The notes below the pieces were generated by a model. That model was not told the DNA's origin, searched no databases, and saw nothing but the letters and a program-made list of their open reading frames with translations. 64,000 nt of DNA from Nitrospirota bacterium (GTDB lineage: Bacteria > Nitrospirota > Nitrospiria > SBBL01 > JAADHI01): NCBI GenBank assembly GCA_029261215.1, contig JAJDBT010000118.1:9121-73120 (forward strand). The letters are read 5' to 3'. The number at the start of each line of letters is the position of its first letter. The stretch's first letter is position 1. Below, piece by piece: positions 30,091-64,000 of the stretch. The position numbers were made by a program, and so were the translations under genes.

Positions 30091-30129
30091 CTTTTCTCCT
30101 TCGTTGTTTATCCGATAAAATAATTTAGC

Positions 30130-40738: not shown

Positions 40739-43549
40739 TTGTCCAGCAATAAAACGCTACATTTCGCCGCGCTTCTGCTTGTAACCATCTTCCTTTCATC
40801 TTGCATTGACGATAAAACAGCCCCCTCGTCGGATGTCGCGGCCACAACCGTTGCGGTCTCAATCGAACCAAATCTAAGCACCACAGTGCCGAAAAGTGGA
40901 GCGATCGCATACACCGCTTCGGTCACTGGATCTGGCAATACCGCTGTAAAATGGAGTATCCAGGAAGGCGCCTCCGGCGGAAACATTACCAATAAAGGAT
41001 TGTATACGGCACCCGCAACAGTAGGCACATTTCATGTGATCGCCACCAGCCAGGCCGACCCCGGAAAAAGCGCCACGGCGACTGTGACCGTATCTTCCAT
41101 TCTAGATGCCAGCTTTGCCTCAAACGGCAGTATTTCGACGCCTTTTACAAGTATCGACATTATTAACAGCATTGCACAACAAGCCGACGGGAAAATTGTC
41201 GTCGGAGGATACTCACTCAACGGAACAGAAACGGATTTCGCACTGGCCCGTTATCTTAGCAACGGCATCCTCGATACTTCTTTCGGAACCAATGGCATTG
41301 TGGTGACTTCTCTGGGAGGAAGTACCGAAATCAAAGCAATCACCTTGCAGGATGACGGAAAAATCCTGGCGGGTGGGAACACCTCCAACACTGAAAACAG
41401 CAATTTTGTACTGGCCCGGTATTTGAAAAATGGGACACTTGATCCCGATTTTGGAAACAACCGTACTGGTTTCATTAAAACCAGCATTAATGTGGGGAAT
41501 GACAAGCTAAATGCCATCGCGCTTTTGCCAAACGGAAAGATCGTTGCAGGTGGATTTTCCGCCGTGACCACAACCAACGATATTGGCAGCGTGAGGAATA
41601 AATTTGCCCTGGTGCAATATCAATCCAACGGAACGCTTGATCCGACTTTCGACACCGACGGCATGCTCACCACCGCCATCGGAACAGGCAATGAAGAAAT
41701 TCTTGCTCTGACCATTGATTCTAACGGAAAAATTATCGCAGGAGGCTTCTCATCCAATGGCAGCAATAATGATTTTGCGCTTGCGCGCTACAACAGTGAT
41801 GGCAGCTTAGACACCAGTTTTGACGCCGATGGAAAACTCACCACGCCCATCGGAACAGGCAATGAACGCATCACCAGCTTGGCCATTGATTCTAGCGGAA
41901 AAATTGTCGCAGGAGGCTTTGCAGCAATTGGCGCAACGAACGATTTTGCGCTTGCGCGCTACGACAGTAATGGTAGCTTGGACACCACCTTTGACACCGA
42001 CGGAAAACTCACCACCGCCATCGGGACCAGCGACGAAGAAATCAGGGCTTTGGCTGTGCGTTCTAACGATAAAATCATTGCCGGGGGATTTGCTTCATTC
42101 TCAGGAAACAGAGACTTCGCACTCGTCGCATACAATGCCGATGGCAGTTTAGACACCAGCTTCGATACGGATGGCAAGCTGACCACCACAATTGGAACAG
42201 GAACCGATGAAATCAACACCCTGCTTCTCCAGCCGGATGACAAGATCGTCGTTGGCGGATTTTCCTTCGTCGGAACAAGTCCAGCCTTCGCCCTCGCAAG
42301 ATACACTGCTAACGGCAGCCTGGACACCACCTTCCACACGGACGGAAAACTAAGCACATTGATTGGGGGCGGGGCAGATGAAATTAATGCGGTGGCCCTT
42401 CAAGCCGACAATAAAATCATCGCCGCCGGATTTACCTTCGGGACCAACAATATCAGAAACAAGGATTTTGCATTGACCCGTTACAATAGCGACGGCACCC
42501 TCGACACGACCTTTGGAAACAACGGGAAAGTCACCACGGCAATCGGGAGTACCGCCAGCAATGGGCATGACATTATCAATGATATTTCCATTCAAAGCGT
42601 CGATGAAAAAATCGTCGCCGCCGGGTCTTATCGCAATGGGAGTAATGGGGACGATTTTGTTCTGGCAAGATACACCGTCAACGGCACCCTTGACACCAGC
42701 TTCGGCACAGGCGGCCTTGTCAAAACCACGATCAACACTAACGATGAAACAATCAATGCCCTTGTCCTGCAGCCAGACGGCAAAATTGTTGCGGCGGGAA
42801 CCTCCTTTACAACCGGAACCGCACCGAACCATCACGACTTTACCCTCGCACGTTACAACACCAATGGCACGCTCGACACCAGCTTTGGCGCAAGCGGCAT
42901 ACAAAAAACGCCGATTGACAATGGGAGCTTTGCGGAAGCGGTCGTACTTCAGTCCGACGGAAAAATTGTCGTGGCGGGCTCCTCAGAAAGCAATACCGGC
43001 TTTGACTTTGCGCTCGCTCGATATAACCTTGATGGCACGATTGATACGAGCTTTGGTATTGACGGAATCGTCAGAACCCCCGTCAGCACAGGGCATGATT
43101 TTGCAAACGCGATAAAAATTCAAAGCGACGGAATGATCGTCGTTTCGGGAACAAGCTTTTCAGGGGCATCGCCCGAACAATTCGCTGTCGTGCGTTATAA
43201 CAGTGATGGAAGTCTCGACAGCAGTTTTGGCACAGGCGGAATGGTCACAACAGCAATTGCCAACGGGGCACAGCCCTTTGCCCTTGTCATTCAAGATGGG
43301 AAAATTGTGCTGGGCGGCTTTTCGATCAGCATACTCAACAACCGTGATTTCACGCTCGTCCGCTATCTATCGGATGGCACATTGGACCCCGCATTTGGTG
43401 TAAATGGCATTGAGATCTCGCCCTTTAGCCCTGCGATAGACGAGATCCACGACCTTATCCTCTCGGATGGCCAGATTCTCGCCGCCGGGTTTTCCGTCAA
43501 CGGCTATGGGGAGAATACGGATTTCCATTTAGCCCGTTACGCGCCTTAA
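40739..43549 (+). CDS. Delta-60-repeat beta-propeller lipoprotein with an N-terminal Ig-like domain, unknown function
   Basis: Lipobox LSSC is present and an Ig-like segment ends ...GKSATATVTV. About 14 units of roughly 57 aa follow, of the form DFALARY..DGSLDTSFDTDGKLTT.IGTG.DEI.AL...DGKIV.GGF. Confidence 0.82.
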   Translation: MSSNKTLHFAALLLVTIFLSSCIDDKTAPSSDVAATTVAVSIEPNLSTTVPKSGAIAYTASVTGSGNTAVKWSIQEGASGGNITNKGLYTAPATVGTFHVIATSQADPGKSATATVTVSSILDASFASNGSISTPFTSIDIINSIAQQADGKIVVGGYSLNGTETDFALARYLSNGILDTSFGTNGIVVTSLGGSTEIKAITLQDDGKILAGGNTSNTENSNFVLARYLKNGTLDPDFGNNRTGFIKTSINVGNDKLNAIALLPNGKIVAGGFSAVTTTNDIGSVRNKFALVQYQSNGTLDPTFDTDGMLTTAIGTGNEEILALTIDSNGKIIAGGFSSNGSNNDFALARYNSDGSLDTSFDADGKLTTPIGTGNERITSLAIDSSGKIVAGGFAAIGATNDFALARYDSNGSLDTTFDTDGKLTTAIGTSDEEIRALAVRSNDKIIAGGFASFSGNRDFALVAYNADGSLDTSFDTDGKLTTTIGTGTDEINTLLLQPDDKIVVGGFSFVGTSPAFALARYTANGSLDTTFHTDGKLSTLIGGGADEINAVALQADNKIIAAGFTFGTNNIRNKDFALTRYNSDGTLDTTFGNNGKVTTAIGSTASNGHDIINDISIQSVDEKIVAAGSYRNGSNGDDFVLARYTVNGTLDTSFGTGGLVKTTINTNDETINALVLQPDGKIVAAGTSFTTGTAPNHHDFTLARYNTNGTLDTSFGASGIQKTPIDNGSFAEAVVLQSDGKIVVAGSSESNTGFDFALARYNLDGTIDTSFGIDGIVRTPVSTGHDFANAIKIQSDGMIVVSGTSFSGASPEQFAVVRYNSDGSLDSSFGTGGMVTTAIANGAQPFALVIQDGKIVLGGFSISILNNRDFTLVRYLSDGTLDPAFGVNGIEISPFSPAIDEIHDLILSDGQILAAGFSVNGYGENTDFHLARYAP
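41600..42370 (+). repeat. In-frame 171-nt tandem DNA repeats inside the delta-60-repeat gene (approximate bounds)
   Basis: The same phase marker (ggaacaggcaatgaa / gggaccagcgacgaa / ggaacaggaaccgat) occurs at 41681, 41852, 42023 and 42194, exactly 171 nt apart. The run gattttgcgcttgcgcgctac is identical in adjacent units. Confidence 0.8.
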
Positions 43550-49666: not shown

Positions 49667-50134
49667 TTAAGACACTTGCATATCCAAAACAGTAAAAAAG
49701 ATCACAAGCAGTCCCGCCAATAAAACCACCAAATTTAAAAGCATCGAAAAGCCATGAAACCGCCGAAAGCGCTTTGATTTTTCTGCTTCATCAGAGCAAT
49801 CCGTTGAGGCCCTGAGATCGTTCTTGAGCTGTCTCACTTTTGGCACAACAATAAATGCGGCATAAAATGTCGAGAGCATCATAAAACTTAATGTGATAAG
49901 CCGCGCCCTGTGCCATTCAAACACGACAGATGACATGGCCAATGTCCCCAAACTTAAAACACTGCACAGACATCCCACTTGATAGTATTTTGGAAATATT
50001 TTAGCCACAATTTCGCCCGCAGTTTCTTTGGGAAAGGCTTTAAAAATCGACGGTGCGGCAATCAATGAAAAAAACACCATGGACCCGACCCAAACCGAGA
50101 GAGACAGGAGATAGAGAAACTGCAGTAAAATCAT
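49667..50134 (-). CDS. DUF4149 (TMEM205-like) four-TM membrane protein
   Basis: The N-terminus reads LLSLSVWVGSMVFFSLIAAPSIFKAF...AGEIVAKIFPKYY, typical of DUF4149. It starts 15 nt downstream of the FG-GAP gene stop. Confidence 0.6.
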   Translation of the reverse strand: MILLQFLYLLSLSVWVGSMVFFSLIAAPSIFKAFPKETAGEIVAKIFPKYYQVGCLCSVLSLGTLAMSSVVFEWHRARLITLSFMMLSTFYAAFIVVPKVRQLKNDLRASTDCSDEAEKSKRFRRFHGFSMLLNLVVLLAGLLVIFFTVLDMQVS

Positions 50135-50149: not shown

Positions 50150-53100
50150 TCAAGGTCCTTCAAGTCGGCTAGAATTTGTTGGTTTCGTCAAAACGGGTTT
50201 ACCGGAAGGGATTCCATCGCAAGCGTTTCCAATACCGTCTCGATCATCATCTTCCTGTCCGAAATTTGCCACAAAAGGACAGTTATCCACATCATCGTTA
50301 AAGCCATCGCCGTCTCCATCCAAAATCGAGAGCTCACAGGCATCCCCTATGTCGTTTCCATTCACATCAACTTGATCCGGGTTTGCAATATTGGCACAAT
50401 TGTCTATTTGATCCGGAACCCCGTCCCCATCACTGTCTCCCGGTAGATCCGCATCCGGCCCCAGCATGCGCACCACATAGGTGCTGTTCGGATCAAGACG
50501 TACAGCATATTGGGCCCCAACTTCATTAGAAATACACTTAGGCCCCGGAGGACAAAACTCTTCCGCTCTTGAACCCAAAAATGAAATTTCAGCTTGTCCC
50601 ACCTTCGTACACGTTTCTCCCACCACCCGGCATGTCACTCCGACAGCCGTGACATTTCCCGGCATACCTGTATCGACATTTAAATGAGTATAAAACAGAC
50701 TGTTAAAAGCGGTAATATTCACCAGGGAATTGCCCGTGAGCGGTGTCACTGAGGGAGAAACCGCATTTCGTGTCCCTTTGAGGATGTTTAAACCAAAGGG
50801 CAGATCAAAAATAATAAAACGCCCACTATTTCCCGTTTGATTCAGCAAGGGATCCACGTCCAGTGCATCGTTCAAATACCGCACAACGCCGACCGGGTTT
50901 CCATCCAGATCACGAGGGTCAACAAGCACATCCTTGACCGAACTGCGTTGACTTAACAGAATCGAAAGGTTGTCAGAACCCGAGTTAAGCGCGATCAGGT
51001 CATTATGCCCGTCCTGATTCAAATCACTCATTAGCAACGCTTTTGGCGCACTGCCCACGGTAAAAGATTTTGAAGGGAGATCAAATCGGCCATCGCCTTT
51101 TCCTGCCACCACAGAAAGGGTGCCGCTTCCTTCATTCGCAATTACGATATCAAGGGTCCCGTCTTGCTCAAAATCAAGTACGAGCAGTGCGCGTGGCATC
51201 GTTCCGGGTGTCAGGGGACAATTTTCATTGATGGGGTCTGTCGCAGGGTTCGGGCCGGGGAAACAATCAACCTTGTCAAAACGATCATTCCCATCCCCTT
51301 TAAAAATAGACAAATCATCAGAACCCGCGTTAAGCACAACAATATCAAGAAGACCATCCGCGTTGAAGTCCCCAACCCCGATGTCGCTCGGATTGTCTCC
51401 CGCGACAAGTGCGGTATTGATTGATCCGTCCCCACTCCACAAAAGGGAGACAACTCCCGAATTGGTCGCCACCGCGAGATCCAGAATATTGTCATCATTA
51501 AAATCCCCTGTCGCAATCCCTGTCGGCGAACCCGCGACCGCACAAGGGGTCGGGCAGGGTGAGTTATTGACAGAGAATCCTCCTCTCCCGTCACCCACCA
51601 GGACCGAAAGGTTGTTTGAGCCCTCATTCGCAATCACAAGGTCAAGCCGCCCATCCCGGTTTAAATCAGCCACCTTGATATGCCCAGGCGCCGTACCCAG
51701 ACCCGCTGTGATGGGCGTAAGAGTCGAAAACGCGCCATTCCCTGTCCCCCACAAACGTGAAATAGAGTTTGATCCCCGGTTGACAACGACGAGATCCGTG
51801 AAACCATCCTGATTAAAATCTCCCGCAGCAATCGCCGCCGGATCGTTTTCAACACCAATTGAAGCGGGCGTCGCCGGAATAAACCCGCCATTCGCCTGAC
51901 CTAAAAAAATCTGCACCTGATCCGGCGCGTGCACAACGGCCACATCAGGATAAACATCCTCATTAAAAAAACCTGCCGTCATGGCCTTCACACCTGAACC
52001 TGTCGAAAGAGTACTGACCGCATCGACAATCGTCTGCGCAACCACCTCACCCGCCACAAGGCCCTTTTGTAAATCAAGACTCACGCCCGCCTGAACCGCC
52101 AGCTGAGACAACTCTGGTTCCGATGTCACATAAAATTGAGCGTCCGTCTGTGGGTTCAATCCGGTTTTGAGTTGATCATTATATGTATCGATGAACCCAT
52201 TTTTAACCACCTTGGTTAAAAATGAACCATTTGCAGGAATCGGCACCCCGGGTGAAACCGTCAAGGATTCGGATGTAAAACGACTTCGCTCTCCCAATAA
52301 TGAAAGCGCTGCACCCGAAACCGGATGATTGTGCAGATCACTCAGATTGCCTCTTACAGGCACATTCAAGGGAACATGGTTCAGCGCAATATCCACCTTG
52401 TGCACACTGTCCGGAAAAACACGGATAATTTGATTGCCAGAATCATCCGAACCGGCAGTCTTGAGCATGACCAGTCCGGGAGGAATGTTTCGGATTAAAA
52501 ACAGACCATTATCTGTTGTTTCAGTTAATGCAAAATCCAGAACCCCGGCGGCATTAAAATAGCTGATATTCCCCACAGGATTTCCGCTTGTCATCACATG
52601 ACCATTCTGATCGATCATCTGCGTCGTCAAAAGCTGTACTTCGTTGTTTCTGCCTCCCAGGCGTCGGTTAATCACGCGCCCCAGAATCGCCCCAGAGCCA
52701 TTTGTCGCACCAATGAATCCGTTTGAGACCAAGGTCAGATCGAGGTTAAGATCCTGGCCTCCGGTATTCACCGACTGATAGGTTGTCACATGTGTGCCGC
52801 CTGACTTTTCAAGGCGAATCAAAATCGTATTATTTGCGAGCAAAGGGGCGATTGCTTCCGAATCTGTTCCGGCTGCAATCGCATATGTCCCTGTCGCAGC
52901 ATCTGAATTAGCGAAGATCTCTGAAAGCCCCATCACACGCATTGAGACACCGCCCACAGGGGTCAACCCATCTTCCTCTAAAACAGTGCCTGACAGGCCA
53001 ACGGTATACCATGTCGGAGGCAATGCCGAGACGGAAGCGGGGTCTACCCGAAGCGCCGTTTCCATCCGCATGTTCAGGAGGGTCAGGCTATTCGGAAACA

Positions 53101-54382
53101 CGGAGGCAAGCGCATTACCCGTTGACTTCACCCTTAAGCCCGAGCCGTCGGTCGCATCAACCACTGCGTAAGCCTTTAAATAAACATCACCCGGAGGCAG
53201 GTTCAGAATCAGAAAGATCCCTTCCGTCGAGGTTTGCACCTGACATCCCGAAATACTCGCATTGTTGCAGACCGGAAAATCGCTGCCCGTGGGAAAATAA
53301 AAGGTCTCGCCAATGGGATTTCCTTCAGCATCCGTTGCGATGACCACAGCCCCGTCTTTTCTGCCTACATTTCCTTCAATCCCGACGGCCTCGGAAATAT
53401 TACCCAATAACATGCCCCGGCCGGAAATCAAGGAAGCTCCAGCAGCCAGAACCAACTGCTGGACATCTTGATTGGCAACACTCGAAAAATCGATTGTGAT
53501 CTCCGGAGTTACGGCGTTCGCTGTTAAGTCGGCCAGGTCGGTAAAAACAGTCTGATAGGTATCTATGTGTCCTGCCGCAGCGACCTTGGAGAGAAATACA
53601 CTTTCGGAACCCAGCCCTGAAGCACTGAAAGCACCGCGTCCCGTCGTCGTAATCGAACCCGCCAGTCCGGGAAAACTGATTTGGCTTGGGCCAACACCGG
53701 TTTCTTTATCCCTTTCCCGCACCACCCCGGCAATATTAGAGGTCGGGAGGGCGACAGGAAAAACAGACATATCGAGCAAGGAGACACTTCCCGCATAAAT
53801 GTTCACCCGTCCGTTTCCTCTGCCGCCTTGCACCGCCTTGACAAAGTGCTGTCCGGGCGGCACATTCAAAGCGGTGAAACTCCCTGAAACTGCGGTTCCC
53901 GTGGTATTAATAAATTCAGGGATGCCGTTAATCCCGTTAAACAAAATAGATGCGACCAATTCGCCATCCGCATTGGTCACTCCGCCTTTGACGGAACCAT
54001 CTATGTTCCTAATAATGCGTCCGGCTTTATCTGTTCCGCCGATTGAAACACTGGGGAGCGGGCGACCGAGGCGGTCCACAACAACCCCACTCAACACTCC
54101 CAGATCTGCCGATTGCTCAGCAGTGCCAGGAACAGCGGTGATCAGGTTTTTAACATCCGCACCGGAAACAATTCGAAGATTACTTAATGTGCCCAGTATT
54201 TCGCTGGTGCCTGTTTTAAAATTGAATGTATAGGTTGGAACCAAAGGAACTTGAAAGCGGCCACCCGTTCGCTCTCCGACGGGGAAGGGGTCTGAGTTGC
54301 ATCCCTGAAAAATAAAGAGACCCCCCAACAGCGTTAAGATAAGTCCTTTAAAAAAAAGAGGGGTTTTCAAGTACTTCAACAT
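50150..54382 (-). CDS. Giant mosaic lipoprotein: CarboxypepD_reg-like beta-sandwich modules + seven FG-GAP/VCBS repeats + C-terminal thrombospondin type-3 (Ca-binding) repeats
   Basis: Lipobox FQGC is present. At least four modules end in the motif N(V/L/I)PPG...(L/V)K. Seven GDFN.DG..D(L/I)V..N.GS..LS(V/I) repeats span aa ~798-1146 (nt 50945-51991). TSP3 motifs DSDGDGVPDQIDNC..NPDQ.D and DGDGDGFNDDVDNCP span nt 50213-50440. Confidence 0.85.
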   Translation of the reverse strand: MLKYLKTPLFFKGLILTLLGGLFIFQGCNSDPFPVGERTGGRFQVPLVPTYTFNFKTGTSEILGTLSNLRIVSGADVKNLITAVPGTAEQSADLGVLSGVVVDRLGRPLPSVSIGGTDKAGRIIRNIDGSVKGGVTNADGELVASILFNGINGIPEFINTTGTAVSGSFTALNVPPGQHFVKAVQGGRGNGRVNIYAGSVSLLDMSVFPVALPTSNIAGVVRERDKETGVGPSQISFPGLAGSITTTGRGAFSASGLGSESVFLSKVAAAGHIDTYQTVFTDLADLTANAVTPEITIDFSSVANQDVQQLVLAAGASLISGRGMLLGNISEAVGIEGNVGRKDGAVVIATDAEGNPIGETFYFPTGSDFPVCNNASISGCQVQTSTEGIFLILNLPPGDVYLKAYAVVDATDGSGLRVKSTGNALASVFPNSLTLLNMRMETALRVDPASVSALPPTWYTVGLSGTVLEEDGLTPVGGVSMRVMGLSEIFANSDAATGTYAIAAGTDSEAIAPLLANNTILIRLEKSGGTHVTTYQSVNTGGQDLNLDLTLVSNGFIGATNGSGAILGRVINRRLGGRNNEVQLLTTQMIDQNGHVMTSGNPVGNISYFNAAGVLDFALTETTDNGLFLIRNIPPGLVMLKTAGSDDSGNQIIRVFPDSVHKVDIALNHVPLNVPVRGNLSDLHNHPVSGAALSLLGERSRFTSESLTVSPGVPIPANGSFLTKVVKNGFIDTYNDQLKTGLNPQTDAQFYVTSEPELSQLAVQAGVSLDLQKGLVAGEVVAQTIVDAVSTLSTGSGVKAMTAGFFNEDVYPDVAVVHAPDQVQIFLGQANGGFIPATPASIGVENDPAAIAAGDFNQDGFTDLVVVNRGSNSISRLWGTGNGAFSTLTPITAGLGTAPGHIKVADLNRDGRLDLVIANEGSNNLSVLVGDGRGGFSVNNSPCPTPCAVAGSPTGIATGDFNDDNILDLAVATNSGVVSLLWSGDGSINTALVAGDNPSDIGVGDFNADGLLDIVVLNAGSDDLSIFKGDGNDRFDKVDCFPGPNPATDPINENCPLTPGTMPRALLVLDFEQDGTLDIVIANEGSGTLSVVAGKGDGRFDLPSKSFTVGSAPKALLMSDLNQDGHNDLIALNSGSDNLSILLSQRSSVKDVLVDPRDLDGNPVGVVRYLNDALDVDPLLNQTGNSGRFIIFDLPFGLNILKGTRNAVSPSVTPLTGNSLVNITAFNSLFYTHLNVDTGMPGNVTAVGVTCRVVGETCTKVGQAEISFLGSRAEEFCPPGPKCISNEVGAQYAVRLDPNSTYVVRMLGPDADLPGDSDGDGVPDQIDNCANIANPDQVDVNGNDIGDACELSILDGDGDGFNDDVDNCPFVANFGQEDDDRDGIGNACDGIPSGKPVLTKPTNSSRLEGP

Positions 54383-54494: not shown

Positions 54495-57400
54495 CTAAAA
54501 ACTGTAACTCAGTTCCAAATAAATACGGTTGCTGTCTTTAAAAAAGCCGATAAAATCAAACTGCCCAACCTCTTCCCCGCGGTCACCCACAAAAATATCA
54601 CTGCCAAAAATAGCTTTCACATTGTCGCTCAGCCTCGTCTCAAGCGCTGGCCGGAAGAGAAAATCCGCTTCGTTAATAAAATAGAGGGACAGGATTCTAA
54701 GTACGAGTTCTTCATTCATGAATGTTTTTCTCATAAAATGAGCGGCAACGGTATCAATGCGATCCTGTAATATTGTGGCGTTCCAGCCCGGAATGTACTG
54801 TTGAATAAACTGCAGGGACATATCCGCACCCAAAAGGGAAAAATCAAGACCGACGGCATATTTCATATAATCGCGCTGTAGTTCACCCAGCAGCGGGGAT
54901 TGATCTTCACTCAGATCAGCGCTGGCGGCAGCAGCCGCATCGATATCCAGTAATGTCCCAAAGAGTTTTCCAAAAACATAGGCATATTCGGCATTCAGCA
55001 CAACACGGCCAAAACTTTTTGAAAGAGTCGTGCCTACGGTGGTAATACGGTGCATCCTTGGCTCAAATTGGACTTCTGGCGGGTCAGAAAATGGATTTAG
55101 GCCCGCGCCGAGGATCGACCGGAAACTCGCAGGAAAATCATCCCATTGATAAAAAACAGTCATTCCGACTTCCCAGTCTTTTATCGTCTGAACGAGCCGT
55201 CCGGCAATTTCTGTATTTTGAAAAGCATTCACATTCAAGTTCAAGGAATCATCCAGAAAAGCTTCTGGGGCAATAAACCCCGGCAGAATCTGAAACTGCT
55301 CAAATTCTGAACCGGACGGGGCCGGTTTATGCGGGACGGCTTCGGTAATCCAAATGAGCTCCAATCGCGCATCCCCTGGGAAAAAGTCTGCCTTCAGCAT
55401 CATCAAGGGAATAAAGCGATCTTCAACTTCTCGTAAAATAAATTCACCAAAATCAAAAGGGTTAATCTCGTCCGTCACCCGCGCACCAGGGACAACCCCC
55501 CAGCGCACGATCTGCTTTCCGATACGAAGATCCATATTTTTAAAATGTGCATCAATATAAAATTCTCTCAAATCAACACTATGCCGATTCTGCTCCACCG
55601 CACGTGAATTTTCGACATCCACGCCAGCGACTTCTTCTCTTGTCGGCGATTGCGGAAGCGTCGTCAGGATTGTATTGTCAAAGCGCCTTGGACTAATCGT
55701 GTCCACATCGACAAAATCATAAATCGCATCATAAAATGTGCGCCCACGGCCGGTAATTTGATATCTTGGAGAAAATGCATACCGACCGTTTAAACGAAGT
55801 AATGTCAGCGCTTTTGTAAAAGTGACCGGACTGTTAATCCGGTAAGCCACTTCATGTTTTAGGGTACCGTCCCATTGGAAATCCTGGAGTAACAAAGGAG
55901 AGTCCTCGGTTGCAAGGTCGGCCTCATCACCCCAATTCAGCCATTTTTCGAATATAGTTTGGTCTGAACTCCCTTTCCCAAAATGAAACCGGAGCGCCAT
56001 TCGGGCTTCAAAACCATCCAGATTTATTCTCAAAATCCGAGGCCGTGTCCCCTCACGCACTTGATCATTGTCACAGGTAATGGTGGTCAGGGTTTGCCCT
56101 CTTGTCTGGTTGTCTCCTAATTGAAAACAGGGATTGACCGATACGCCAGGCTGGCCCGCCGTAGAACCCCGAAAGCCGGATGGAAATTCCCGCTCGACCC
56201 TGAGTTTTGTCACCGTTCCCCAAAGATAGTTGACGCCTAAACCCACTGAAAACCAGGGACGGATAAAAACTTCCCCTCCCAGTCCGGCCCGCGTTGTAAA
56301 ACTCCGACCTCTTGCTTCAAAAGACCCCAGAGAAACAAAAGGCCCGCCGGTTGGATTTTCTTCTGCGCGAATCAGAGCATCCGCTGTTAAATTAACAAAT
56401 GAGCCGCCCAATAGTCCGAGATCCATATAAATACGACCGATTTCAGGGTCGTTCAAGAGGGCATACCGCCATGAAAGGAAAACTTGATTGATGCTCAGGT
56501 TATATCGGGCGCTTCTTGGCAGCAGGCCAGATCGTGTGGGTGAGAATTGAAAAGGGATCAAATCAGTTCTGACGGTGTTGCTTTGCCATTCCGAAAGGCT
56601 CAATACCAGACCATTTCGCTCATTGATGCTCCACTCTGCTTCTATTCCGAGTGTTTCACTGCCTTTAATTTCTTCCATCGCCAAATTTCTTACTTCTGAT
56701 ACAAAACCTGGATTTGAAGGGAGAATATGATTTGGGTCTTGAGCAATGACTGTTTTTGGGTCACTCAACACCTGATTTAGATTTTCCAGAGAAGGTTTGT
56801 AATACCCCGTAGTGAGGCTGACGCTCAGTTGCGTCGCGCCCGACTTCCATTTGGGATAAAGAAATTCCAGATCTGTCGCCGCCGTCAATCCAAAGGTCAC
56901 GATGTCCTGATCATAGGCGCCCAAAGATTGAACTTGGCCACTATTAATATCGACTAAATCAATGTCCGAAGCCACGGGAAGGTTTGAAAGGTTTTTGTTT
57001 CGCGCAAAATTGGCAAAAAAAGTCACTCCAGGCTGAAGGTCATAAGAAAAACCTGCCGTTGCGCTGTACAGCTGATTCTGACGCTTGCGGCGAATTCCTC
57101 GGCTTAGGGCAAATGAATCGGCATTTAAATAATCGGACACGGCATAACTTGCGCCCAGTGTCAATGTTAAGTCGGGACCCAGGTCACGGATGTAATTTCC
57201 AGAGAGGGTTTGCGTGATTCTTTCCTGATCGTTCGCGAGCACATGACTCAGCCCATAGGTATATGATCCCTGAACCCGGCCTAAATCAAAGCCAAACAGA
57301 GAAAGATTCTGCGCCAGAATGCCACTGCCCGTTGCCGTTTTGGTACTAAAAATCGGGTTACTATAGATCTCGATATCCTGATAACTCAGACGGAGTGTAA

Positions 57401-59231
57401 CCGAGGAGGGGAAAACAGCCTGGCGTGATACTTCGGCCGTGTAGCCATTGATCCGAATAAACTTCCCTTTACTTAGGGTATCGCCATACATCGTCCCCAT
57501 TCTAAAATTGTAACCCAATACCACACTATAGGATGAAATAAACTGCGCATATAAAAGACTTGCGCCAGTATTGACAAAATAAAGCTGAGAATGGTGAAGC
57601 AGGCGCGTATTGAAATTAATCTGAAAAGGAATTTTGAGCAGTTCCTTTTTTTTCAAATAATAGGTTAATGCAAGATTGGATTCAGAGCTTACTTCACTGA
57701 TCGGCACCTGACTCCGCGTACTATTGCTATCAAACGAGACGGCCATGTCGGAATAGCTGACATTGAACTTTTTTTCATATAAATCAACGCGACCCTGTGC
57801 AATTTTTTTCATCCTTGCTTCTCTGTCTTTAGACAAGTCGAGTACCGCGTGATACGCATCCAATGCGTTTTGAATCTCATCTTTTTTTTCATACAGAATG
57901 CCAAGCCGCATATGTGCCCCGGCTTCCAATGGCCTTACAGTCACCGCATCTTTGTAGATTAAAATGGCCTTATCAAGGTCGTTCATCTTTTCATAAATTT
58001 CACCCAGCAGGAAATAACTGAGATAATGATTCCGATCAATTTCAATGGCCGCTTTGAGCTTTTGCTCCGATTCCTTCAAATCGCCTTCTTCCAGGGCGAT
58101 CTGGCCCAGATGGTAGTGGACAAGCACCTGTTTCGGTAAATACGTAAGCACAACAAGAAATGCTGCCCGCGCACCTTCAAAATCTTTCCTGGAAAGTAAT
58201 CGGCCTCCTTCTCTCAAAAGTGATTGAACCAGAATTCCGATTTCCGGGGTTTCCCCTATTTGGGATAGCTTTTGCCTCGCAATCATCACTTCTTGTTGCT
58301 TTGGATCGCTAACTTCCTGTAACAACCCCTGATATTCGCTAATCGCCTTGTCAATTTCACCTTTATTTTCATAGGTTTGTCCTAGAAATAATCGTGCTGA
58401 AAATAAATCGGGCTTTTGCTCAAGCGCTTTTCTTAATCTATCAACCGCTTCATCCAATTGTCCTTTCTGAATCGCAATGATCCCCAGACTAAAAAGCGCC
58501 TTTGGATTTTCGGGGTCGAGAATTAATCCTTTTTGAAACAGATCTGTTGCCTCTGCAATCAAACCTTGTTTTAAGTGCGCTGTCCCATTTTGGAAGAAAG
58601 CTTCTGCATGTTTTTTCAGAAGAGCAATTTGGGACTCTGCCTGCTTTTTTTCAGGGCCCTCACCTTTAGACGCAACGGCAGCACGATATCGCTCAATGGC
58701 TTTAAATATTTCCCCCTGACTTTGGAACAATAAGCCCAAATAATAGTGGCCCCCCGGATAGTCAGGGTTGACATCAATCGCACGTTCAAAGGCAGCGATG
58801 GCTTTTTTATTTTCTTTCGTTGCGGCATAAGCCTGCCCGAGTAAAAGGTGTCCTGCTAATAAACTCTCGTCTATTTCAACAGCCTGCCTAAGCACCTCTA
58901 TTGCCCGATCAATCTCACCTTTTCGAGTATAGATAATCCCAAGCAGAAGATAGGAGGGTGTATGCCTCGGGTTTACCAACAAAACGTCCTGAAAAGCAGA
59001 GATAGCCTGGCTCAATTTTCCCTCACCCATCAAGGCCCTTCCTTCCTCAAAGATGGCCCGCTCAGTTAGGTTAGGGCTTGTTTGGGCCTGTACAGGAGAG
59101 GGAATAAAGAAGAATAATCGTCCGACTAAAAAGAGAATACCCACGAAAGCAATGAACGCTTTCTTTGGGACAAGATCCTTAAAGATCGGTTTTTGAGGTC
59201 GCACCTTCACTAAAAAATCAAGTCTCCACAA
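54495..59231 (-). CDS. Giant outer-membrane protein: signal peptide + ~415-aa TPR array + up to three tandem beta-barrel-like modules (the C-terminal one DUF1302-like)
   Basis: TPR repeats span aa 55-470. After that, the pattern is amphipathic beta strands. Segments end ...GLTAATDLEF (aa 790), ...FEARMALRFHF (aa 1084) and ...RIYLELSYSF (aa 1578). The block LREFYIDAHFKNMDLRIGKQIVRWG resembles DUF1302. The TTG start is uncertain. Confidence 0.8.
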   Translation of the reverse strand: MWRLDFLVKVRPQKPIFKDLVPKKAFIAFVGILFLVGRLFFFIPSPVQAQTSPNLTERAIFEEGRALMGEGKLSQAISAFQDVLLVNPRHTPSYLLLGIIYTRKGEIDRAIEVLRQAVEIDESLLAGHLLLGQAYAATKENKKAIAAFERAIDVNPDYPGGHYYLGLLFQSQGEIFKAIERYRAAVASKGEGPEKKQAESQIALLKKHAEAFFQNGTAHLKQGLIAEATDLFQKGLILDPENPKALFSLGIIAIQKGQLDEAVDRLRKALEQKPDLFSARLFLGQTYENKGEIDKAISEYQGLLQEVSDPKQQEVMIARQKLSQIGETPEIGILVQSLLREGGRLLSRKDFEGARAAFLVVLTYLPKQVLVHYHLGQIALEEGDLKESEQKLKAAIEIDRNHYLSYFLLGEIYEKMNDLDKAILIYKDAVTVRPLEAGAHMRLGILYEKKDEIQNALDAYHAVLDLSKDREARMKKIAQGRVDLYEKKFNVSYSDMAVSFDSNSTRSQVPISEVSSESNLALTYYLKKKELLKIPFQINFNTRLLHHSQLYFVNTGASLLYAQFISSYSVVLGYNFRMGTMYGDTLSKGKFIRINGYTAEVSRQAVFPSSVTLRLSYQDIEIYSNPIFSTKTATGSGILAQNLSLFGFDLGRVQGSYTYGLSHVLANDQERITQTLSGNYIRDLGPDLTLTLGASYAVSDYLNADSFALSRGIRRKRQNQLYSATAGFSYDLQPGVTFFANFARNKNLSNLPVASDIDLVDINSGQVQSLGAYDQDIVTFGLTAATDLEFLYPKWKSGATQLSVSLTTGYYKPSLENLNQVLSDPKTVIAQDPNHILPSNPGFVSEVRNLAMEEIKGSETLGIEAEWSINERNGLVLSLSEWQSNTVRTDLIPFQFSPTRSGLLPRSARYNLSINQVFLSWRYALLNDPEIGRIYMDLGLLGGSFVNLTADALIRAEENPTGGPFVSLGSFEARGRSFTTRAGLGGEVFIRPWFSVGLGVNYLWGTVTKLRVEREFPSGFRGSTAGQPGVSVNPCFQLGDNQTRGQTLTTITCDNDQVREGTRPRILRINLDGFEARMALRFHFGKGSSDQTIFEKWLNWGDEADLATEDSPLLLQDFQWDGTLKHEVAYRINSPVTFTKALTLLRLNGRYAFSPRYQITGRGRTFYDAIYDFVDVDTISPRRFDNTILTTLPQSPTREEVAGVDVENSRAVEQNRHSVDLREFYIDAHFKNMDLRIGKQIVRWGVVPGARVTDEINPFDFGEFILREVEDRFIPLMMLKADFFPGDARLELIWITEAVPHKPAPSGSEFEQFQILPGFIAPEAFLDDSLNLNVNAFQNTEIAGRLVQTIKDWEVGMTVFYQWDDFPASFRSILGAGLNPFSDPPEVQFEPRMHRITTVGTTLSKSFGRVVLNAEYAYVFGKLFGTLLDIDAAAAASADLSEDQSPLLGELQRDYMKYAVGLDFSLLGADMSLQFIQQYIPGWNATILQDRIDTVAAHFMRKTFMNEELVLRILSLYFINEADFLFRPALETRLSDNVKAIFGSDIFVGDRGEEVGQFDFIGFFKDSNRIYLELSYSF

Positions 59232-59271
59232 AAAAATAGGTCATGAAGCAGTTCATGCTCGATAAACAGAT

Positions 59272-59303
59272 AAAAAAAAGGGGAAGACTTTTAAGTCTCC
59301 CCC
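59272..59303 (-). terminator. Rho-independent terminator after the 287-aa secreted-protein gene
   Basis: The minus strand reads GGGGGAGAC-TTAAAA-GTCTTCCCC followed by TTTTTTTT. This is a 9-bp stem with one G-U pair, starting 38 nt after the stop codon. Confidence 0.85.
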
Positions 59304-59340
59304 TTTAAAATAGCTTAATTTCGCTTTTTTTACGATTTTC

Positions 59341-60204
59341 TTACTGCGGAATTCTTTGCAGATCAGGATCTTGACCTGCGGACTGCCCTGGACCTGTCGG
59401 GGTACTTGCCCCAAAGGTACTGTCAAAGGCAAGAGCGGTCGTGTTGTTGTAATCAAACGACCCTTGCAATGGACCGAGCGCAAAACCGCCTTCCACAATA
59501 GACTGCTCCCAATTAATGGTGCCACCACCGTTGGCGACCGACGAACTCTGCTGACCGACAGAACTGGCTGCAATAGTGACCACTTGCAGTTCATCCCCAT
59601 TCAAGCCTTCAGTAAAGGTTGTCTGCGAGACTGCCTGATCAAAAGAAATGGTGCTGTCCGTCGCACTGTAGGTAAAGGTGTTTGAAAAATCGATCAAAAC
59701 ACCGGCTCTTCCCACAGGCGATGTGCTGGGGGGCACAGTCGTGGCGATAGGCGTCCCTTCCGACAGAAAATCCTGAGTCGGAACGGGCAAACTGAACACA
59801 AAATCCCCAGAGTCGTTACACCCTACCGTATTACACGATGTGGCAGTGGGAATCGTCATACCCTGTACAACGGGATTAAACGCTTTATCCCCTAAATCCG
59901 CATCGCTGTTAAGACGAATGACACCAAACATACTGGCCGTCAATGCGCCCGCTGTCGTTCCGCCTGCATTTGAATTCACACAAGTAAAACAGGGACCTGC
60001 TGAAGCATCTGTATTGCTTACAGCATCCATCAAACTCACGGTTGGATCAAAACCCAACTCGGTACTCCCCATTGTATTTGTTTCATTCGTACAGACAATA
60101 TTGCCAGTACCACCGCCTGTACAAACCTGAGCGGAAGCTTCAGTTCCCGGCAACAATGCATAGGACCCAACAACTAACGCTAATAAAAAGACTTTTTTTA
60201 ACAT
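59341..60204 (-). CDS. Secreted Thr/Ser/Gly-rich protein with three Cys pairs, unknown function
   Basis: The signal peptide reads MLKKVFLLALVVGSYALLPGTEASA. The mature part is almost free of Lys and Arg. Cys pairs are CTGGGTGNIVC, CFTC and CNTVGC. A strong Shine-Dalgarno (GGAGGTGG) is present. I recognise no family. Confidence 0.8.
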   Translation of the reverse strand: MLKKVFLLALVVGSYALLPGTEASAQVCTGGGTGNIVCTNETNTMGSTELGFDPTVSLMDAVSNTDASAGPCFTCVNSNAGGTTAGALTASMFGVIRLNSDADLGDKAFNPVVQGMTIPTATSCNTVGCNDSGDFVFSLPVPTQDFLSEGTPIATTVPPSTSPVGRAGVLIDFSNTFTYSATDSTISFDQAVSQTTFTEGLNGDELQVVTIAASSVGQQSSSVANGGGTINWEQSIVEGGFALGPLQGSFDYNNTTALAFDSTFGASTPTGPGQSAGQDPDLQRIPQ

Positions 60205-60277
60205 AAGCTCTCCACCTCCCTCTACTTCACTTCTTTTAAAGAATGGAATGAAGACTTCTCTTAAAAGAAGATCATTG

Positions 60278-60314
60278 TCATATGACTCTATTTAGAAAAA
60301 CTACAGTCATATGA
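60278..60314. promoter_or_regulatory. Pair of TCATATGA palindromes forming a perfect 10-bp inverted repeat (TCATATGACT / AGTCATATGA); candidate operator
   Basis: The arms lie at 60278-60287 and 60305-60314. They sit immediately downstream of the proximal -10 element of the secreted-protein gene, so they overlap the predicted transcription start and early leader. Confidence 0.45.
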
Positions 60315-60320
60315 GCTTGA

Positions 60321-60349
60321 ATACTAGTGAAATACCATCTCCCTGTCAA
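60321..60349 (-). promoter_or_regulatory. Strong sigma70-like promoter of the 287-aa gene (TTGACA-17 nt-TAGTAT on the minus strand)
   Basis: On the plus strand tgtcaa lies at 60344-60349 and atacta at 60321-60326. The -35 is consensus and the spacing is optimal. Confidence 0.6.
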
Positions 60350-60367
60350 CCCCCTCTTTTGAGGGGG
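60350..60367. other. GC-rich hairpin CCCCCTC-(4 nt)-GAGGGGG abutting the -35 element
   Basis: 7-bp perfect stem with no flanking U tract on either strand. It may mark the end of the LolA-like transcript or insulate the promoter. Confidence 0.4.
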
Positions 60368-60458
60368 AAGAACGGTTTCGATATGCCGTTTATGGGGATC
60401 AACGAAATAAGCAGAACATCCTTACGAATACGCTAACTTGCTTAACATAATCGAAAAG

Positions 60459-60488
60459 ATATTACTGCTTCAGCTTGATTAATGTCAA
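60459..60488 (-). promoter_or_regulatory. Second, distal sigma70-like promoter (TTGACA-18 nt-TAATAT on the minus strand)
   Basis: On the plus strand tgtcaa lies at 60483-60488 and atatta at 60459-60464. It would give a ~250-nt leader that contains the hairpin and the palindromes. Confidence 0.35.
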
Positions 60489-60547
60489 CAGTACTTTAAT
60501 GTATGATGAAAGACAATGCCTCGCGATACAGATTTTTTCAGCTTGTC

Positions 60548-61369
60548 TTAGCGGTTGGGTCCTCGTAATAACATCCGATCTGAAAATCGCGAATCTTCCA
60601 AACCTGTATCATTCTTTACATCGGTAATTTCGAAAATCGTCTTGTGCTTGGATTGAACATTTGTAATCTCTGATCGTTTCCAAACCAAGACATCCCCCAC
60701 TTTTTGCCAGGAGGTCAATTGCAGTTTTAAAGGCTTCATTGTTCGATCATAGAATTCTACTTTTCGGGCCACCCAGTCTTTTCTTGAAATGAAATAGCGT
60801 TTTTTTCCATAAGGGCTGTCTTGTTCCTTTGGAATACTGTCCACGACATAACACGGTTCATTCAAGCCTCTGCAGACACCCGGCTTATCGAATACCATTT
60901 GATGTTCGTCTTCATCCAGGCGGCGGGCCCCCATATCTGCAAAAGTCAGGTCTGAGCCCATAAAAGAATCATTTTGATCACGAGTGGTCATACGCCTCAC
61001 ACTTCTAAGACTGGGAAGGTATAACCATAGGTCATCCGGTTTCCCTTCAATGGAATAGTCCCAAATTAAAAACCCCGTCCCTTTTTGATCTGGCGGATGC
61101 TCTGTGTAAAATACGCTTTTACTATCCAGCCCCTCTTTTCCGGCAAAGTGCTTATGGAACCGCAAGGTGACAATTTTGCGTTCATTGCCCAGCGCATCAA
61201 TTAAAATCATTGTGACAATCGAAGTTTGATCCATCGTCATATTTGCATGGCTGACCTTTTCCATGACTTCCGCCGCAGTCAACTTCTCTTCTTGGGCCCA
61301 AGCTCGGTCAAATCCTGGGGTGAGCATCAGAATCAAAAAGAAGAGTGCCAATACCGTTTTTTTATTCAT
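60548..61369 (-). CDS. Outer-membrane lipoprotein-sorting (LolA-like / DUF1329-clan) periplasmic protein
   Basis: A signal peptide is present. The family-typical block DDLWLYLPSLRSVRRM......DSFMGSDLTFADM is present. 273 aa. Confidence 0.72.
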   Translation of the reverse strand: MNKKTVLALFFLILMLTPGFDRAWAQEEKLTAAEVMEKVSHANMTMDQTSIVTMILIDALGNERKIVTLRFHKHFAGKEGLDSKSVFYTEHPPDQKGTGFLIWDYSIEGKPDDLWLYLPSLRSVRRMTTRDQNDSFMGSDLTFADMGARRLDEDEHQMVFDKPGVCRGLNEPCYVVDSIPKEQDSPYGKKRYFISRKDWVARKVEFYDRTMKPLKLQLTSWQKVGDVLVWKRSEITNVQSKHKTIFEITDVKNDTGLEDSRFSDRMLLRGPNR

Positions 61370-61953: not shown

Positions 61954-64000
61954 TTAATTTTCAAACTGCGACTTCATCTCACGCAACAAATGATCCTTAA
62001 TCCCCTGGATGGCATCCGGCGACTCAATCTTTTTCTGATCCGCGCCCAAAACATAAAAAACATCAACCACCTGATCCAGGCGCGTTGCAATTTTTGCCGC
62101 ATGCACCACAAGACCCAGCTCCAGAATTCCTTTCGCAATAACAAAAAGTAACCCTTTTTTATCCATCGCAAATATGTCGATAATTGTAAATGTTTTGGAA
62201 CTCTCATTATCCACTTCGACGCGGGTATCCCGCGACGAAACAGGTTCCTTTTTTTGTGGAAACCGGCGGCCCTTCTCAAAAAGGGCCTCAACAGAAACCT
62301 TTCCCGCAAGAACCTTTCGAACATCTTTTCTGATTCCTGCAATACGTTCTTTTGGTGCCGCTTTTTTATGATCAGGATCGATTACCTTGAACGTATCGAT
62401 CACCATGCCATTCGGATGCGTAAACACTTGAGCGCCCAAAATCTCGAGCCCCTTTGCTGAGAGCACCCCCGCCATGGCGGCAAAAATGCCGGCAGTCAAC
62501 CAATCATAGGTGTACAGGGTGTACTCACTCACCCCCTGAGTCGGAAGATAACGGGCCTCCACCTGGATCGGCTCCGTCTGGAGCCGCGACAAAGCCCCCA
62601 GATCCAAAACCACCTGATCAAAAGGCGTCACCAGATAATAGCGCGGAATAAGCGTTTGCAAGGTTTCCTTTAACCAGGATTCGGAATATTTTCCCTTTAG
62701 GGTTTTGAACAATTGTTGTGTGATTTCCTCAACCTGGCTGGCTTCAGAATCGACTTCTTCTCCAATTAAAACCTTTGAAGCTTCTTCAAAAAAGGTTAAC
62801 AACAGTTCCTGTTTCCAGGCCGTCCACATCCCCGGCGCTGTCGCAGCCATATCGGCACAAGTCAGAATAAACAGCTTTCTCAGGGTCTTGAGATCAGCGA
62901 CGGCTTCAGTAAACTGTCTTAGAATGGGCTCATCTGCAAAGTCCCGATAGAGCGCAATTTCAGAGAGAATCAGGTGCTGATGCACCAAAAAAACCAAGAC
63001 ATCCTGCTGGGGTTTGGCATACCCCATTCGATCGGCCACAAGCCCTGCGACTTTTGCCCCCGCTTCGCTGTGATTTTCCAGTCCGCCCTTGCCGATGTCA
63101 TGTAACAAAATCGACAAATGCAGCACATCTTTCCTCTGAACCTTGCTATAAATCTCTTGAAGCGGCCCTGCCTCATTTAAAAAATGCTCTGCTGTTTCAA
63201 GCGCACGAAAACTGTGTTCATCGACCGTGAAGGCATGAGATCGACTTTCCTGAACCAGGCAATTGACCGCCTCAAACTCTGGAATAATCCGCCATAAAAA
63301 ATGGGTCCGGTGCATCATTCGGAGCGTTTTGGCGATGCCTCCGGGTTCTGTCATCAAGGTTTTAAAGAGTGCGTAGGCCCCTGGAGACAAGGGAAGCGTC
63401 TTTTTCTTTTCCGAAATCTGATAAATGGTTTCCAAAACAGCATCCTGAATCCGGAGCGAATGTGTTTTTGAAAGCAAGAACAGCCTTAAAATGTTTTCAT
63501 CCTGGTCAAAAAATTGAAAGGGCTTATCGGATTGAATGGACAACTCTTCTGAAAAGACTTCAAAGCCCGGCGAGATCTGACGTGTCCGCCACGACCGCCG
63601 CCAGCGCTGCCCTCGGCTGACAGGATAGGCCTCGCGAATAAAACGCTTCGAAATCTCCAGCACTCTCCCCGTGTGCAAATAGTAGGCATGCATGAGGCCA
63701 CGGCGATCCTCCAGCTGGAAAAACGGTGCGATTTCTTCCTGTAGCTCAATCGTTAAATGGTCGGAGGCTTTTTTGTCCAAAAAGTGGAGATGGTTTCTCA
63801 GCCGCCATAAAAAGTCCTGCGCCTGAACAAGACTCGTATATTCAATATTTGAAAGATAGCCCCATTGATGGATTTGGGGAAGGTGATGGGTGTGATAACG
63901 CGCAGACGACACCCATTTCAGATAATGAATATCCCGCAAGCCGCCGGGGCTCTGTTTTAAATTGGGCTCCAGCAGGTAGGGTGTTGCGCCATATTCCCGC
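61954..64000 (-). CDS. glnD: [Protein-PII] uridylyltransferase/uridylyl-removing enzyme (N-terminus beyond the window edge)
   Basis: My translation upstream of the ORF-track start continues in frame to nt 64000 (REYGATPYLLEPNLKQSPGGLRDIH, the nucleotidyltransferase signature). It also has the HD motif LLHDIGKG and two C-terminal ACT-like domains. Confidence 0.9.
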   Translation of the reverse strand, partial: REYGATPYLLEPNLKQSPGGLRDIHYLKWVSSARYHTHHLPQIHQWGYLSNIEYTSLVQAQDFLWRLRNHLHFLDKKASDHLTIELQEEIAPFFQLEDRRGLMHAYYLHTGRVLEISKRFIREAYPVSRGQRWRRSWRTRQISPGFEVFSEELSIQSDKPFQFFDQDENILRLFLLSKTHSLRIQDAVLETIYQISEKKKTLPLSPGAYALFKTLMTEPGGIAKTLRMMHRTHFLWRIIPEFEAVNCLVQESRSHAFTVDEHSFRALETAEHFLNEAGPLQEIYSKVQRKDVLHLSILLHDIGKGGLENHSEAGAKVAGLVADRMGYAKPQQDVLVFLVHQHLILSEIALYRDFADEPILRQFTEAVADLKTLRKLFILTCADMAATAPGMWTAWKQELLLTFFEEASKVLIGEEVDSEASQVEEITQQLFKTLKGKYSESWLKETLQTLIPRYYLVTPFDQVVLDLGALSRLQTEPIQVEARYLPTQGVSEYTLYTYDWLTAGIFAAMAGVLSAKGLEILGAQVFTHPNGMVIDTFKVIDPDHKKAAPKERIAGIRKDVRKVLAGKVSVEALFEKGRRFPQKKEPVSSRDTRVEVDNESSKTFTIIDIFAMDKKGLLFVIAKGILELGLVVHAAKIATRLDQVVDVFYVLGADQKKIESPDAIQGIKDHLLREMKSQFEN

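Follow-up and report, generated by a model that had tools for sequence, protein, structure and literature searches.

In type XI secretion systems (T11SS), a TPR-barrel protein exports adjacent lipidated cargo as well as soluble cargo processed by signal peptidase I (SPase I), and the Lol pathway is expected to deliver the lipidated cargo (PMC8406197). DUF1302 is predicted to form an 18-strand AlgE/Occ-like barrel (template-modeling [TM] score to AlgE, ~0.55) and to bind DUF1329 (interface predicted TM score, 0.84) (PMC13499233). DUF1302/DUF1329 pairs are widespread, including in Pseudomonas, and have fitness phenotypes, no known substrate, and no solved structure (10.1101/072470; 10.1101/2020.07.04.188060; PMC13499233). 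They have been proposed to export an envelope component with BNR and RND partners (10.1101/072470) or, alternatively, to function in ester metabolism (10.1101/2020.07.04.188060). Here, we analyze a locus in a 64-kb stretch of Nitrospirota DNA (the whole stretch is referred to as the window) in which a gene for a 287-aa secreted protein (59341..60204, minus strand), representing an orphan Nitrospirota family, lies directly upstream of genes for a 1,578-aa TPR-DUF1302 outer-membrane protein (54495..59231, minus strand) and a 1,410-aa FG-GAP/TSP3 lipoprotein (50150..54382, minus strand). The reading that we tentatively favor, which is plausible but falls short of probable, is that the 287-aa protein is an abundant cargo or partner of the TPR-DUF1302 barrel system, which would be Slam/type XI-like without being a member of that class.

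The 287-aa open reading frame (ORF) is a real gene. The ORF itself, the promoter-like site, the Shine-Dalgarno sequence, and the intrinsic terminator that had been reported in an initial annotation of this DNA are all found in place. The encoded protein begins with a typical Sec/SPase I signal peptide (residues 1–25) consisting of a KK pair, a hydrophobic core, and a cleavage site between ASA and Q. This is followed by a conserved N-terminal core (residues ~45–110) with invariant CFTC and GGTTAGALTNSMFG motifs, an amphipathic β-sheet (residues 131–253) that is predicted with confidence, and a C-terminal tail with a conserved A-P-T-G-x-G-Q-S motif. The mature protein (262 aa) is acidic (pI ~4.05) and contains just one Lys and three Arg, whereas Lys and Arg each account for ~5% of residues in the other ORFs of the window. 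Thr (13.4%), Gly (12.2%), Ser (10.7%), and Asn (6.1%) are abundant, with T+G+S amounting to 36%, and the composition is thus the acidic, T/S/G/N-rich one, almost devoid of Lys and Arg, that had been described initially. Six Cys residues are present as pairs (28/38, 72/75, and 124/129). Internal repeats are not detected (hhalign probability of 0.2% for the N- versus C-terminal half and 1.4% for hairpin versus hairpin).

A sigma-70-type promoter-like site (60321..60349, minus strand) is located 145 nt upstream of the ATG codon and consists of a −35 hexamer TTGACA (60349..60344), a 17-nt spacer, and a −10 hexamer TAGTAT (60326..60321), giving 10 of 12 consensus matches. A scan of 15 kb for consensus promoters yielded 24 sites, compared with 17.3 ± 4.8 expected from shuffled sequences, and a lone match of this kind is therefore not significant; the case rests on conservation across loci. 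For this comparison, loci carrying the family gene or relatives of the locus were fetched (L001–L021; the window locus is designated WIN). L001, L002, L007, and L019 are the same DNA, as are L003 and L010, and L013 and L020. The pattern TTGAC(A/T)-17-TA(G/A/C)NAT occurs 114–147 nt upstream of the ATG codon in WIN, L001, L003, L004, L005, L008, L011, L016, and L021, and because the site recurs at a like position in about eight related loci, the near-consensus promoter of the initial annotation is credible. The predicted 5′ leader of ~110 nt (60205..60314, minus strand) contains a hairpin near its 5′ end (CAUAUGACU...AGUCAUAUG) and the Shine-Dalgarno sequence GAGGGAGGUGGAG. The latter lies within a purine-rich stretch, GAGGGAGGTGGAG (60222..60210), that ends 5 nt before the ATG codon, in agreement with the strong Shine-Dalgarno sequence noted earlier, and a G-rich ribosome-binding site is common to all family copies. 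In L001, L004, and L008, the leader is likewise predicted to form a hairpin close to its 5′ end. Leader folding is not significant relative to shuffled sequences (z-scores of −0.5 to −2.6), and the only Rfam matches in 58800..61000 fell below threshold and were driven by the terminator.

The intrinsic terminator (59272..59306, minus strand) consists of a hairpin (59306..59277) with a 4-nt loop and a T8 run (59279..59272). Its core stem has 10 bp, or 13 pairs with the A-U extension, rather than the 9 bp reported initially. In nearly all related loci, a GC-rich hairpin and T-run are located 20–60 nt past the stop codon of the last family copy: they are present in WIN, L001, L004, L005, L006, L008, L009, L011, L012, L015, L017, and L018, and in L003 they follow the second family copy. 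L013 is the sole locus with no obvious terminator hairpin. At least six different stem sequences are found across the loci; since its structure and position are conserved while its sequence is not, the terminator is likely to be functional. A further GC-rich hairpin (CCCCCTC-AAAA-GAGGGGG; 60350..60367, minus strand), which has no U-tract, abuts the −35 hexamer, and equivalent hairpins occupy this position in L003, L008, and L011. The LolA-like gene is located upstream of this hairpin in WIN, L003, and L011, and the upstream DNA of L008 ends at a contig edge; the hairpin probably marks where the preceding LolA-like transcription unit ends. As promoter position, leader, strong ribosome-binding site, and terminator recur in orthologous loci, the 287-aa gene appears to be a separately signaled unit, and these signals, and only these, make its high expression a reasonable expectation. 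Codon bias was rejected as a proxy for expression: the effective number of codons is 49.0 for the 287-aa gene, among the lowest in the window, but 56.9 for rpsB.

The gene is less clearly insulated from what follows it. Residues 5–67 of the 1,578-aa protein are conserved in its orthologs, and translation therefore likely starts at the GTG codon at 59210. This codon is located only ~60 nt beyond the T-run, and no promoter-like hexamers are found between the two in the window. The giant genes of the window would thus probably depend on read-through, and the terminator may be an attenuator that sets the ratio of products rather than an insulator. Longer spacers with an extended −10-like sequence, TGnTATA(C/G)T, just past the terminator are found in five close relatives (L001, ~10953; L004, ~10917; L005, ~6461; L017, ~7385; L018, ~5512) and two distant relatives (L003, ~3183; L012, ~957), but not in the window, L011, or L015; at L006, where the family gene stands alone, the terminator is followed by TGGTATAAT. 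In the lineages that have it, this sequence may serve the TPR-DUF1302 gene as a promoter of its own. The description of the 287-aa gene as transcriptionally insulated consequently holds for its own promoter and terminator but is doubtful, in the window, for the boundary with the barrel gene, and the associated statement that the flanking giant genes lack such signals is contradicted by the downstream FG-GAP gene, which has a fair Shine-Dalgarno sequence (AGGTGA).

Synteny was assessed by searching all fetched loci by tblastn with the four proteins of the locus. In 10 of 14 distinct loci (WIN, L001, L003, L004, L005, L011, L012, L015, L017, and L018), the family gene immediately precedes the TPR-DUF1302 gene and has the same orientation. 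Across these linked loci, the TPR-DUF1302 gene encodes ~1,550 aa and the FG-GAP/TSP3 gene ~1,400 aa, and the latter follows the barrel gene wherever the contig continues. The LolA-like gene immediately precedes the family gene in WIN, L003, L011, L014, and L021. Two tandem family copies are present in L003 (1296..3073), and tandem copies are probably present in L012/L014 and L021 (1954..3150); other copies stand alone, and one of these (L013) comes from the same metagenome-assembled genome (MAG) as a linked copy (L007). Stand-alone copies in L006, L008, and L009 have their own terminators. The copies in L008, L009, L012, and L014 are located at contig ends, which suggests that paralogous repeats break assemblies. 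In L015, a second secreted ORF (1828..3129, plus strand) separates the family gene from the barrel gene. It encodes ~350 aa, has an EAFA-Q cleavage site, is rich in G, S, T, N, and D, contains four close Cys pairs, and shows no significant relationship to the family (hhalign probability, 2.4%). Its CCF and GLTPNLFGF motifs resemble PCF and ALTNSMFG of the family.

This arrangement bears on whether the 287-aa protein is handled by the machinery or is part of it. As an accessory or structural subunit of an outer-membrane complex, it would serve as a plug, cap, or periplasmic adaptor whose open sheet pairs with the barrel or the LolA-like protein, by analogy with LptE in LptD or the β-propeller partner of canonical DUF1302/DUF1329 clusters. 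The fixed place of its gene, immediately ahead of the barrel gene and co-oriented with it, would fit this role, as would the similar divergence of the two proteins (36–61% identity for the family and 42–58% for the barrel protein). However, a strong private promoter and terminator imply a large stoichiometric excess over the barrel, and a fixed part of a machine does not usually have tandem duplicates or stand-alone paralogs; we regard this role as rather unlikely. That extra copies, in tandem or standing alone, coexist with only one machinery locus favors a cargo or structural protein; more specifically, the strong private signals, the multiple copies per machinery locus, and the variable slot make a core machine subunit less likely than a cargo or partner.

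The genes beside the 287-aa gene are machinery-like. The 1,578-aa protein consists of a signal peptide, a TPR region of ~450 aa, an unassigned β-rich region of ~600 aa, and a C-terminal DUF1302 barrel (PF06980, 48.1 bits; cutoff, 23.2). TPR models match residues ~50–470 with E values of 1e-47 to 1e-20, and TPR_Slam scores 46.3 bits. The middle 631 aa, when scanned alone against families, matched only Porin_4 (E = 0.029). The protein ends in LSYSF; (Y/R)SF, the usual β-signal of outer-membrane proteins, is found at the C-terminus of every ortholog. A search for distant relatives returned only six close Nitrospirota orthologs. The public annotation of the barrel protein (P0035, 1,511 aa) begins at Met68 and so omits the signal peptide. 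The 1,410-aa protein has FG-GAP/VCBS repeats followed by C-terminal thrombospondin type 3 (TSP3) calcium-binding repeats. Its lipobox (IFQGC followed by NSDPFP) is conserved in six orthologs as L/I-F-x-G/A/S-C and then N/H-S-D/E-P-F-P, which identifies it as a giant lipoprotein. The 273-aa product of the LolA-like gene (60548..61369, minus strand) is a DUF1329-related periplasmic protein (PF17131, 157.9 bits; PF07044, 45.8 bits with a cutoff of 23.1). The location of a giant lipoprotein gene beside LolA-like and TPR-barrel genes suggests surface-lipoprotein export.

In the mechanism that we propose, transcription of the 287-aa gene would start at its own sigma-70-type promoter and proceed through the ~110-nt leader with its very strong ribosome-binding site, and most transcripts would end at the strong intrinsic terminator. 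The product would be an abundant protein, exported by Sec and stabilized by disulfides, that forms a functional unit with the products of the following genes, namely, the giant FG-GAP/TSP3 lipoprotein and the TPR-DUF1302 protein with its predicted AlgE/Occ-like barrel. The barrel would deliver the 287-aa protein to or across the outer membrane, either as a cargo or as a stoichiometrically abundant partner, and the extended C-terminal tail with its APTGxGQS motif would be a candidate docking peptide for the TPR domain. Dependence on the barrel, a surface or extracellular location, and docking of the tail to the TPR domain are all conjectural elements of this scheme.

The family comprises ~35 sequences, all full length (270–312 aa) and retrieved with very strong scores, with no tail of distant relatives: a phmmer search of 1.84 billion representatives gave eight matches, all in the family, and a profile run against 5.8 billion proteins retrieved 30, all full-length members. 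Every named source is an uncultured Nitrospirota MAG from marine sediment or a hydrothermal site (e.g., ‘Ca. Manganitrophaceae bacterium M_MetaBat.18’, ‘Nitrospiria bacterium’, and ‘Nitrospirota bacterium OFTM244/249/308’), and the nearest homologs of all four locus proteins are likewise from Nitrospirota. Pfam and NCBIfam searches with the 287-aa protein gave no match, Pfam searches with 28 aligned members gave only scattered noise at E ≤ 10, and a profile search of Protein Data Bank (PDB) sequences gave a single match with an E value of 1.5. The initial statement that no family could be recognized therefore survives remote-homology searches, and a comparative-genomics paper on Ca. Manganitrophaceae makes no mention of the locus; as judged from these searches, the family is undescribed. 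A hidden Markov model search of six-frame ORFs in the window and in the neighborhoods of L001–L015 revealed no family paralogs.

Conservation extends over the full length of the family (36–61% identity), including the C-terminal half, which is well conserved. The alignment contains an invariant block, GPCF(T/S)C-x-N-x-(N)AGGTTAGALTNSMFG-x-IR-x-N-x-DADLGDKSF. The A-P-T-G-x-G-Q-S motif lies within a variable, Pro/Gly-rich, predicted-disordered tail (residues ~259–287; 59341..59430), in which Thr270 and Gly271 are invariant in 28 sequences, and it could be a sorting or docking signal. In all 28 of 28 sequences, Cys residues are gained or lost only pairwise, and one member (P0033) has an additional new Cys pair at the C-terminus. 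This pairwise behavior is good evidence that the Cys pairs behave as disulfides, which in turn would place the protein outside the cytoplasm. Of the three closely spaced disulfide pairs proposed initially, only Cys72/Cys75 (C72-x-x-C75) is invariant; the other two are present or absent together.

The invariance of this one pair raises the possibility that the 287-aa protein is an independent abundant periplasmic or envelope protein in which CxxC is a redox or soft-metal (e.g., Cu) site, linkage to the barrel gene being a matter of lineage history or shared regulation. C72-F-T/S/I-C75 is located in the most conserved block together with the invariant Met92, the gene is monocistronic with its own signals, and four loci lie away from the barrel locus. 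On the other hand, gene order is retained across lineages that share only 36–48% identity (L003, L011, and L015), and the MAG with the stand-alone L013 copy also has the linked L007 copy. The family has no conserved His, and CF(T/S/I)C is followed by P, V, K, R, or A and never by H, as it would be in the CxxCH motif of c-type cytochromes. Matches to thioredoxin, Sco, CopZ, and cupredoxin are absent at E ≤ 10 in 28 members; the family has no Pfam match to a thioredoxin fold, and such a fold is therefore unlikely, with the reservation that the structure around CxxC is poorly predicted (predicted local distance difference test [pLDDT] score, ~45–70). Taken as a whole, an independent CxxC protein is unlikely.

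Structure prediction with AlphaFold2 (AF2) gave a poor first model (19 sequences; pLDDT 48) and a second model with a mean pLDDT of 64.7 (28 sequences). In the latter, residues 131–253 are modeled as five long antiparallel strands of 12–14 residues and two short ones. The strands alternate strictly, so that one face of the sheet is conserved and aromatic/hydrophobic and the other is polar, and the polar face carries the invariant residues Gln190, Gln194, Gln207, and Gln234. The sheet stays open and is not closed into a barrel. A sheet with a hydrophobic face and a Gln-lined polar face needs a partner surface, which would suit the accessory subunit discussed above, but the hydrophobic face may be covered by the poorly modeled N-terminal half. 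Foldseek searches with the two models gave no matches to pilin, immunoglobulin (Ig)-like, amyloid-subunit, TbpB, hemophilin, or fHbp folds, and FapF appeared only as noise (E = 2.5); the structure-prediction check for a known family that the initial annotation had called for thus returned no PDB fold match.

A small integral outer-membrane β-barrel of the porin or OmpA/OmpX-like type would fit the acidic composition rich in G, T, N, and F, the alternation of hydrophobic and polar residues in strands of 12–14 residues, and the monocistronic gene with a long leader like that of ompA. This identity is nevertheless highly improbable: only five long and two short strands are predicted and they are unclosed, no member has a C-terminal aromatic β-signal (the tails are Pro/Gly-rich, such as ...IPQ, ...LPGN, and ...IGGF-like), no outer-membrane protein family or fold is matched, and three disulfide pairs are unusual for an outer-membrane protein.

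Fimbrial, curli, and Fap operons share a layout in which a terminator separates the major-subunit gene from large assembly genes. The initial annotation drew on this layout to propose a structural subunit or cargo placed beside its machinery, as in curli, Fap, or pilin loci. A polymerizing fiber or surface-layer subunit assembled at the barrel, in the manner of curli (CsgA/CsgG), Fap (FapC/FapF), or chaperone-usher pili, would be consistent with the resemblance of the locus to the fim, pap, csg, and fap layouts, with the acidic, Lys/Arg-poor, T/S/G/N-rich composition, and with the alignment of invariant glutamines on the polar face of the sheet. Nonetheless, the protein has none of the internal imperfect repeats (hhalign probabilities as above), its signal peptide is of the ordinary SPase I type and is not a prepilin leader, genes for CsgG, FapF, usher, and PapD-like proteins are absent from the locus in Pfam and NCBIfam scans, and Foldseek found no pilin, Ig-like, or amyloid-subunit match, all of which make such a fiber improbable. 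The proposal is thus upheld in its general form by machinery-like neighbors in conserved order and by cargo-like extra copies, whereas its fiber analogy comes down to layout.

Several observations weigh against the reading of the 287-aa protein as a cargo or partner of the barrel. The AF2 model is confident only for residues 131–253 (pLDDT 80–93), and Foldseek searches of the PDB with both models yielded nothing but CapZ-type single-sheet noise (best E = 0.075; TM, 0.17). The C-terminal eight-stranded TbpB-type barrel (TbpBBD), which is the hallmark of T11SS cargo, is absent from 28 members at E ≤ 10. The LolA-like gene is not found within 10 kb upstream in the L001 and L004 lineage. In four loci (L006, L008, L009, and L013), the family gene is located away from the machinery, among unrelated genes such as those for glutamate dehydrogenase, a pyridoxal phosphate enzyme, MacB/FtsX, and OmpA-like proteins. 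Finally, canonical DUF1302/DUF1329 proteins are proposed movers of lipids or hydrophobic compounds, not of proteins (10.1101/072470; 10.1101/2020.07.04.188060).

With these points taken into account, the cargo-or-partner reading would still have consequences beyond this lineage. If the small protein is a cargo of the barrel, it would give a testable handle on DUF1302 transport and would extend the secretion logic of TPR-barrel proteins beyond DUF560. A bolder version, speculative and rather doubtful, is that the TPR-DUF1302 barrel, the LolA-like carrier, and the FG-GAP/TSP3 lipoprotein constitute a previously unrecognized Nitrospirota system for protein export or surface display, analogous to Slam/T11SS but built on another barrel family, with the 287-aa family as its dedicated soluble cargo or surface matrix subunit recognized via the APTGxGQS tail. 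In that case, it would provide the first protein substrate, and with it the first concrete function, for any DUF1302/DUF1329-type machinery. If the 287-aa protein is not a cargo, it would be one more lineage-restricted hypothetical envelope protein of uncultured marine/hydrothermal bacteria.

Around the locus, glnD (61954..63939, minus strand) runs off the end of the window, and a DUF4149 gene (49667..50134, minus strand) follows the lipoprotein gene. The remainder of the window is core chromosome and includes lpxB, lpxD, bamA, rpsB, an aconitase-family gene, and purE/K. A core envelope-biogenesis block ~27 kb away from the locus (17494..32520, minus strand) encodes a heptosyltransferase, an ABC exporter with an MsbA-type domain pair, LpxB, LpxD, and BamA (30130..32520). 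Two further large β-propeller-repeat proteins are encoded between this block and the locus: a 1,134-aa NHL/lactonase-like protein (32742..36146, minus strand) and a 936-aa protein with 12 DUF5122 repeats (40739..43549, plus strand).

The locus can be compared with four groups of known systems. It resembles fimA, papA, csgA, and fapC loci in that a small gene for an acidic, T/S/G/N-rich secreted protein has a strong promoter and ribosome-binding site and is followed by a terminator before large genes. It differs in that the 287-aa protein lacks repeats and a fold match and in that the locus lacks usher/donor-strand machinery, CsgG, and FapF; Pfam and NCBIfam scans of the locus proteins identified TPR, DUF1302, FG-GAP, TSP3, and LolA_like only. 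TPR and barrel proteins also form the outer-membrane parts of alginate, Pel, poly-N-acetylglucosamine (PNAG), and cellulose exporters. As in AlgK–AlgE, PelB, PgaA, and BcsC, the present locus couples a TPR scaffold in the periplasm to an AlgE-like barrel, and BcsC and PilW-type TPR models gave sub-threshold matches in the locus scan. Unlike exopolysaccharide exporters, the locus contains no synthase, glycosyltransferase, or polysaccharide-modifying genes, and the adjacent genes encode proteins rather than polymer synthesis.

Slam/T11SS members combine a DUF560 barrel with cargo such as TbpB, NilC, or hemophilin/HrpC. The present locus is similar in that its barrel protein has an N-terminal periplasmic TPR domain and is encoded next to both a lipoprotein of the SPase II type and a soluble secreted protein of the SPase I type; together with the LolA-like carrier, these make up all elements of Slam/T11SS logic. 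However, the barrel belongs to DUF1302 and not DUF560, the barrel protein is about three times as large, its TPR region spanning ~450 aa and an additional β-rich region ~600 aa, and the locus is found in Nitrospirota, whereas T11SS are found in Proteobacteria.

Canonical DUF1302/DUF1329 pairs of Proteobacteria, such as PP_0765/PP_0766 and Sama_1588/1589, show cofitness both with a BNR/Ycf48-like propeller and with an RND-like exporter. The present locus shares with them the presence of a barrel domain and a LolA-like protein in one locus (linked in WIN, L003, and L011) and a β-propeller-type partner, FG-GAP here as opposed to BNR in the canonical clusters. It departs from them in that the barrel is fused to TPR and extra domains, a gene for an orphan secreted protein is added, the propeller is a 1,410-aa lipoprotein with TSP3 repeats, and no RND or BNR genes are present among the 26 ORFs of the window scanned against Pfam. 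By its domain content, the locus is an elaborated DUF1302/DUF1329 locus; by analogy, it would work like Slam/T11SS and TPR-porin exporters while falling outside T11SS membership.

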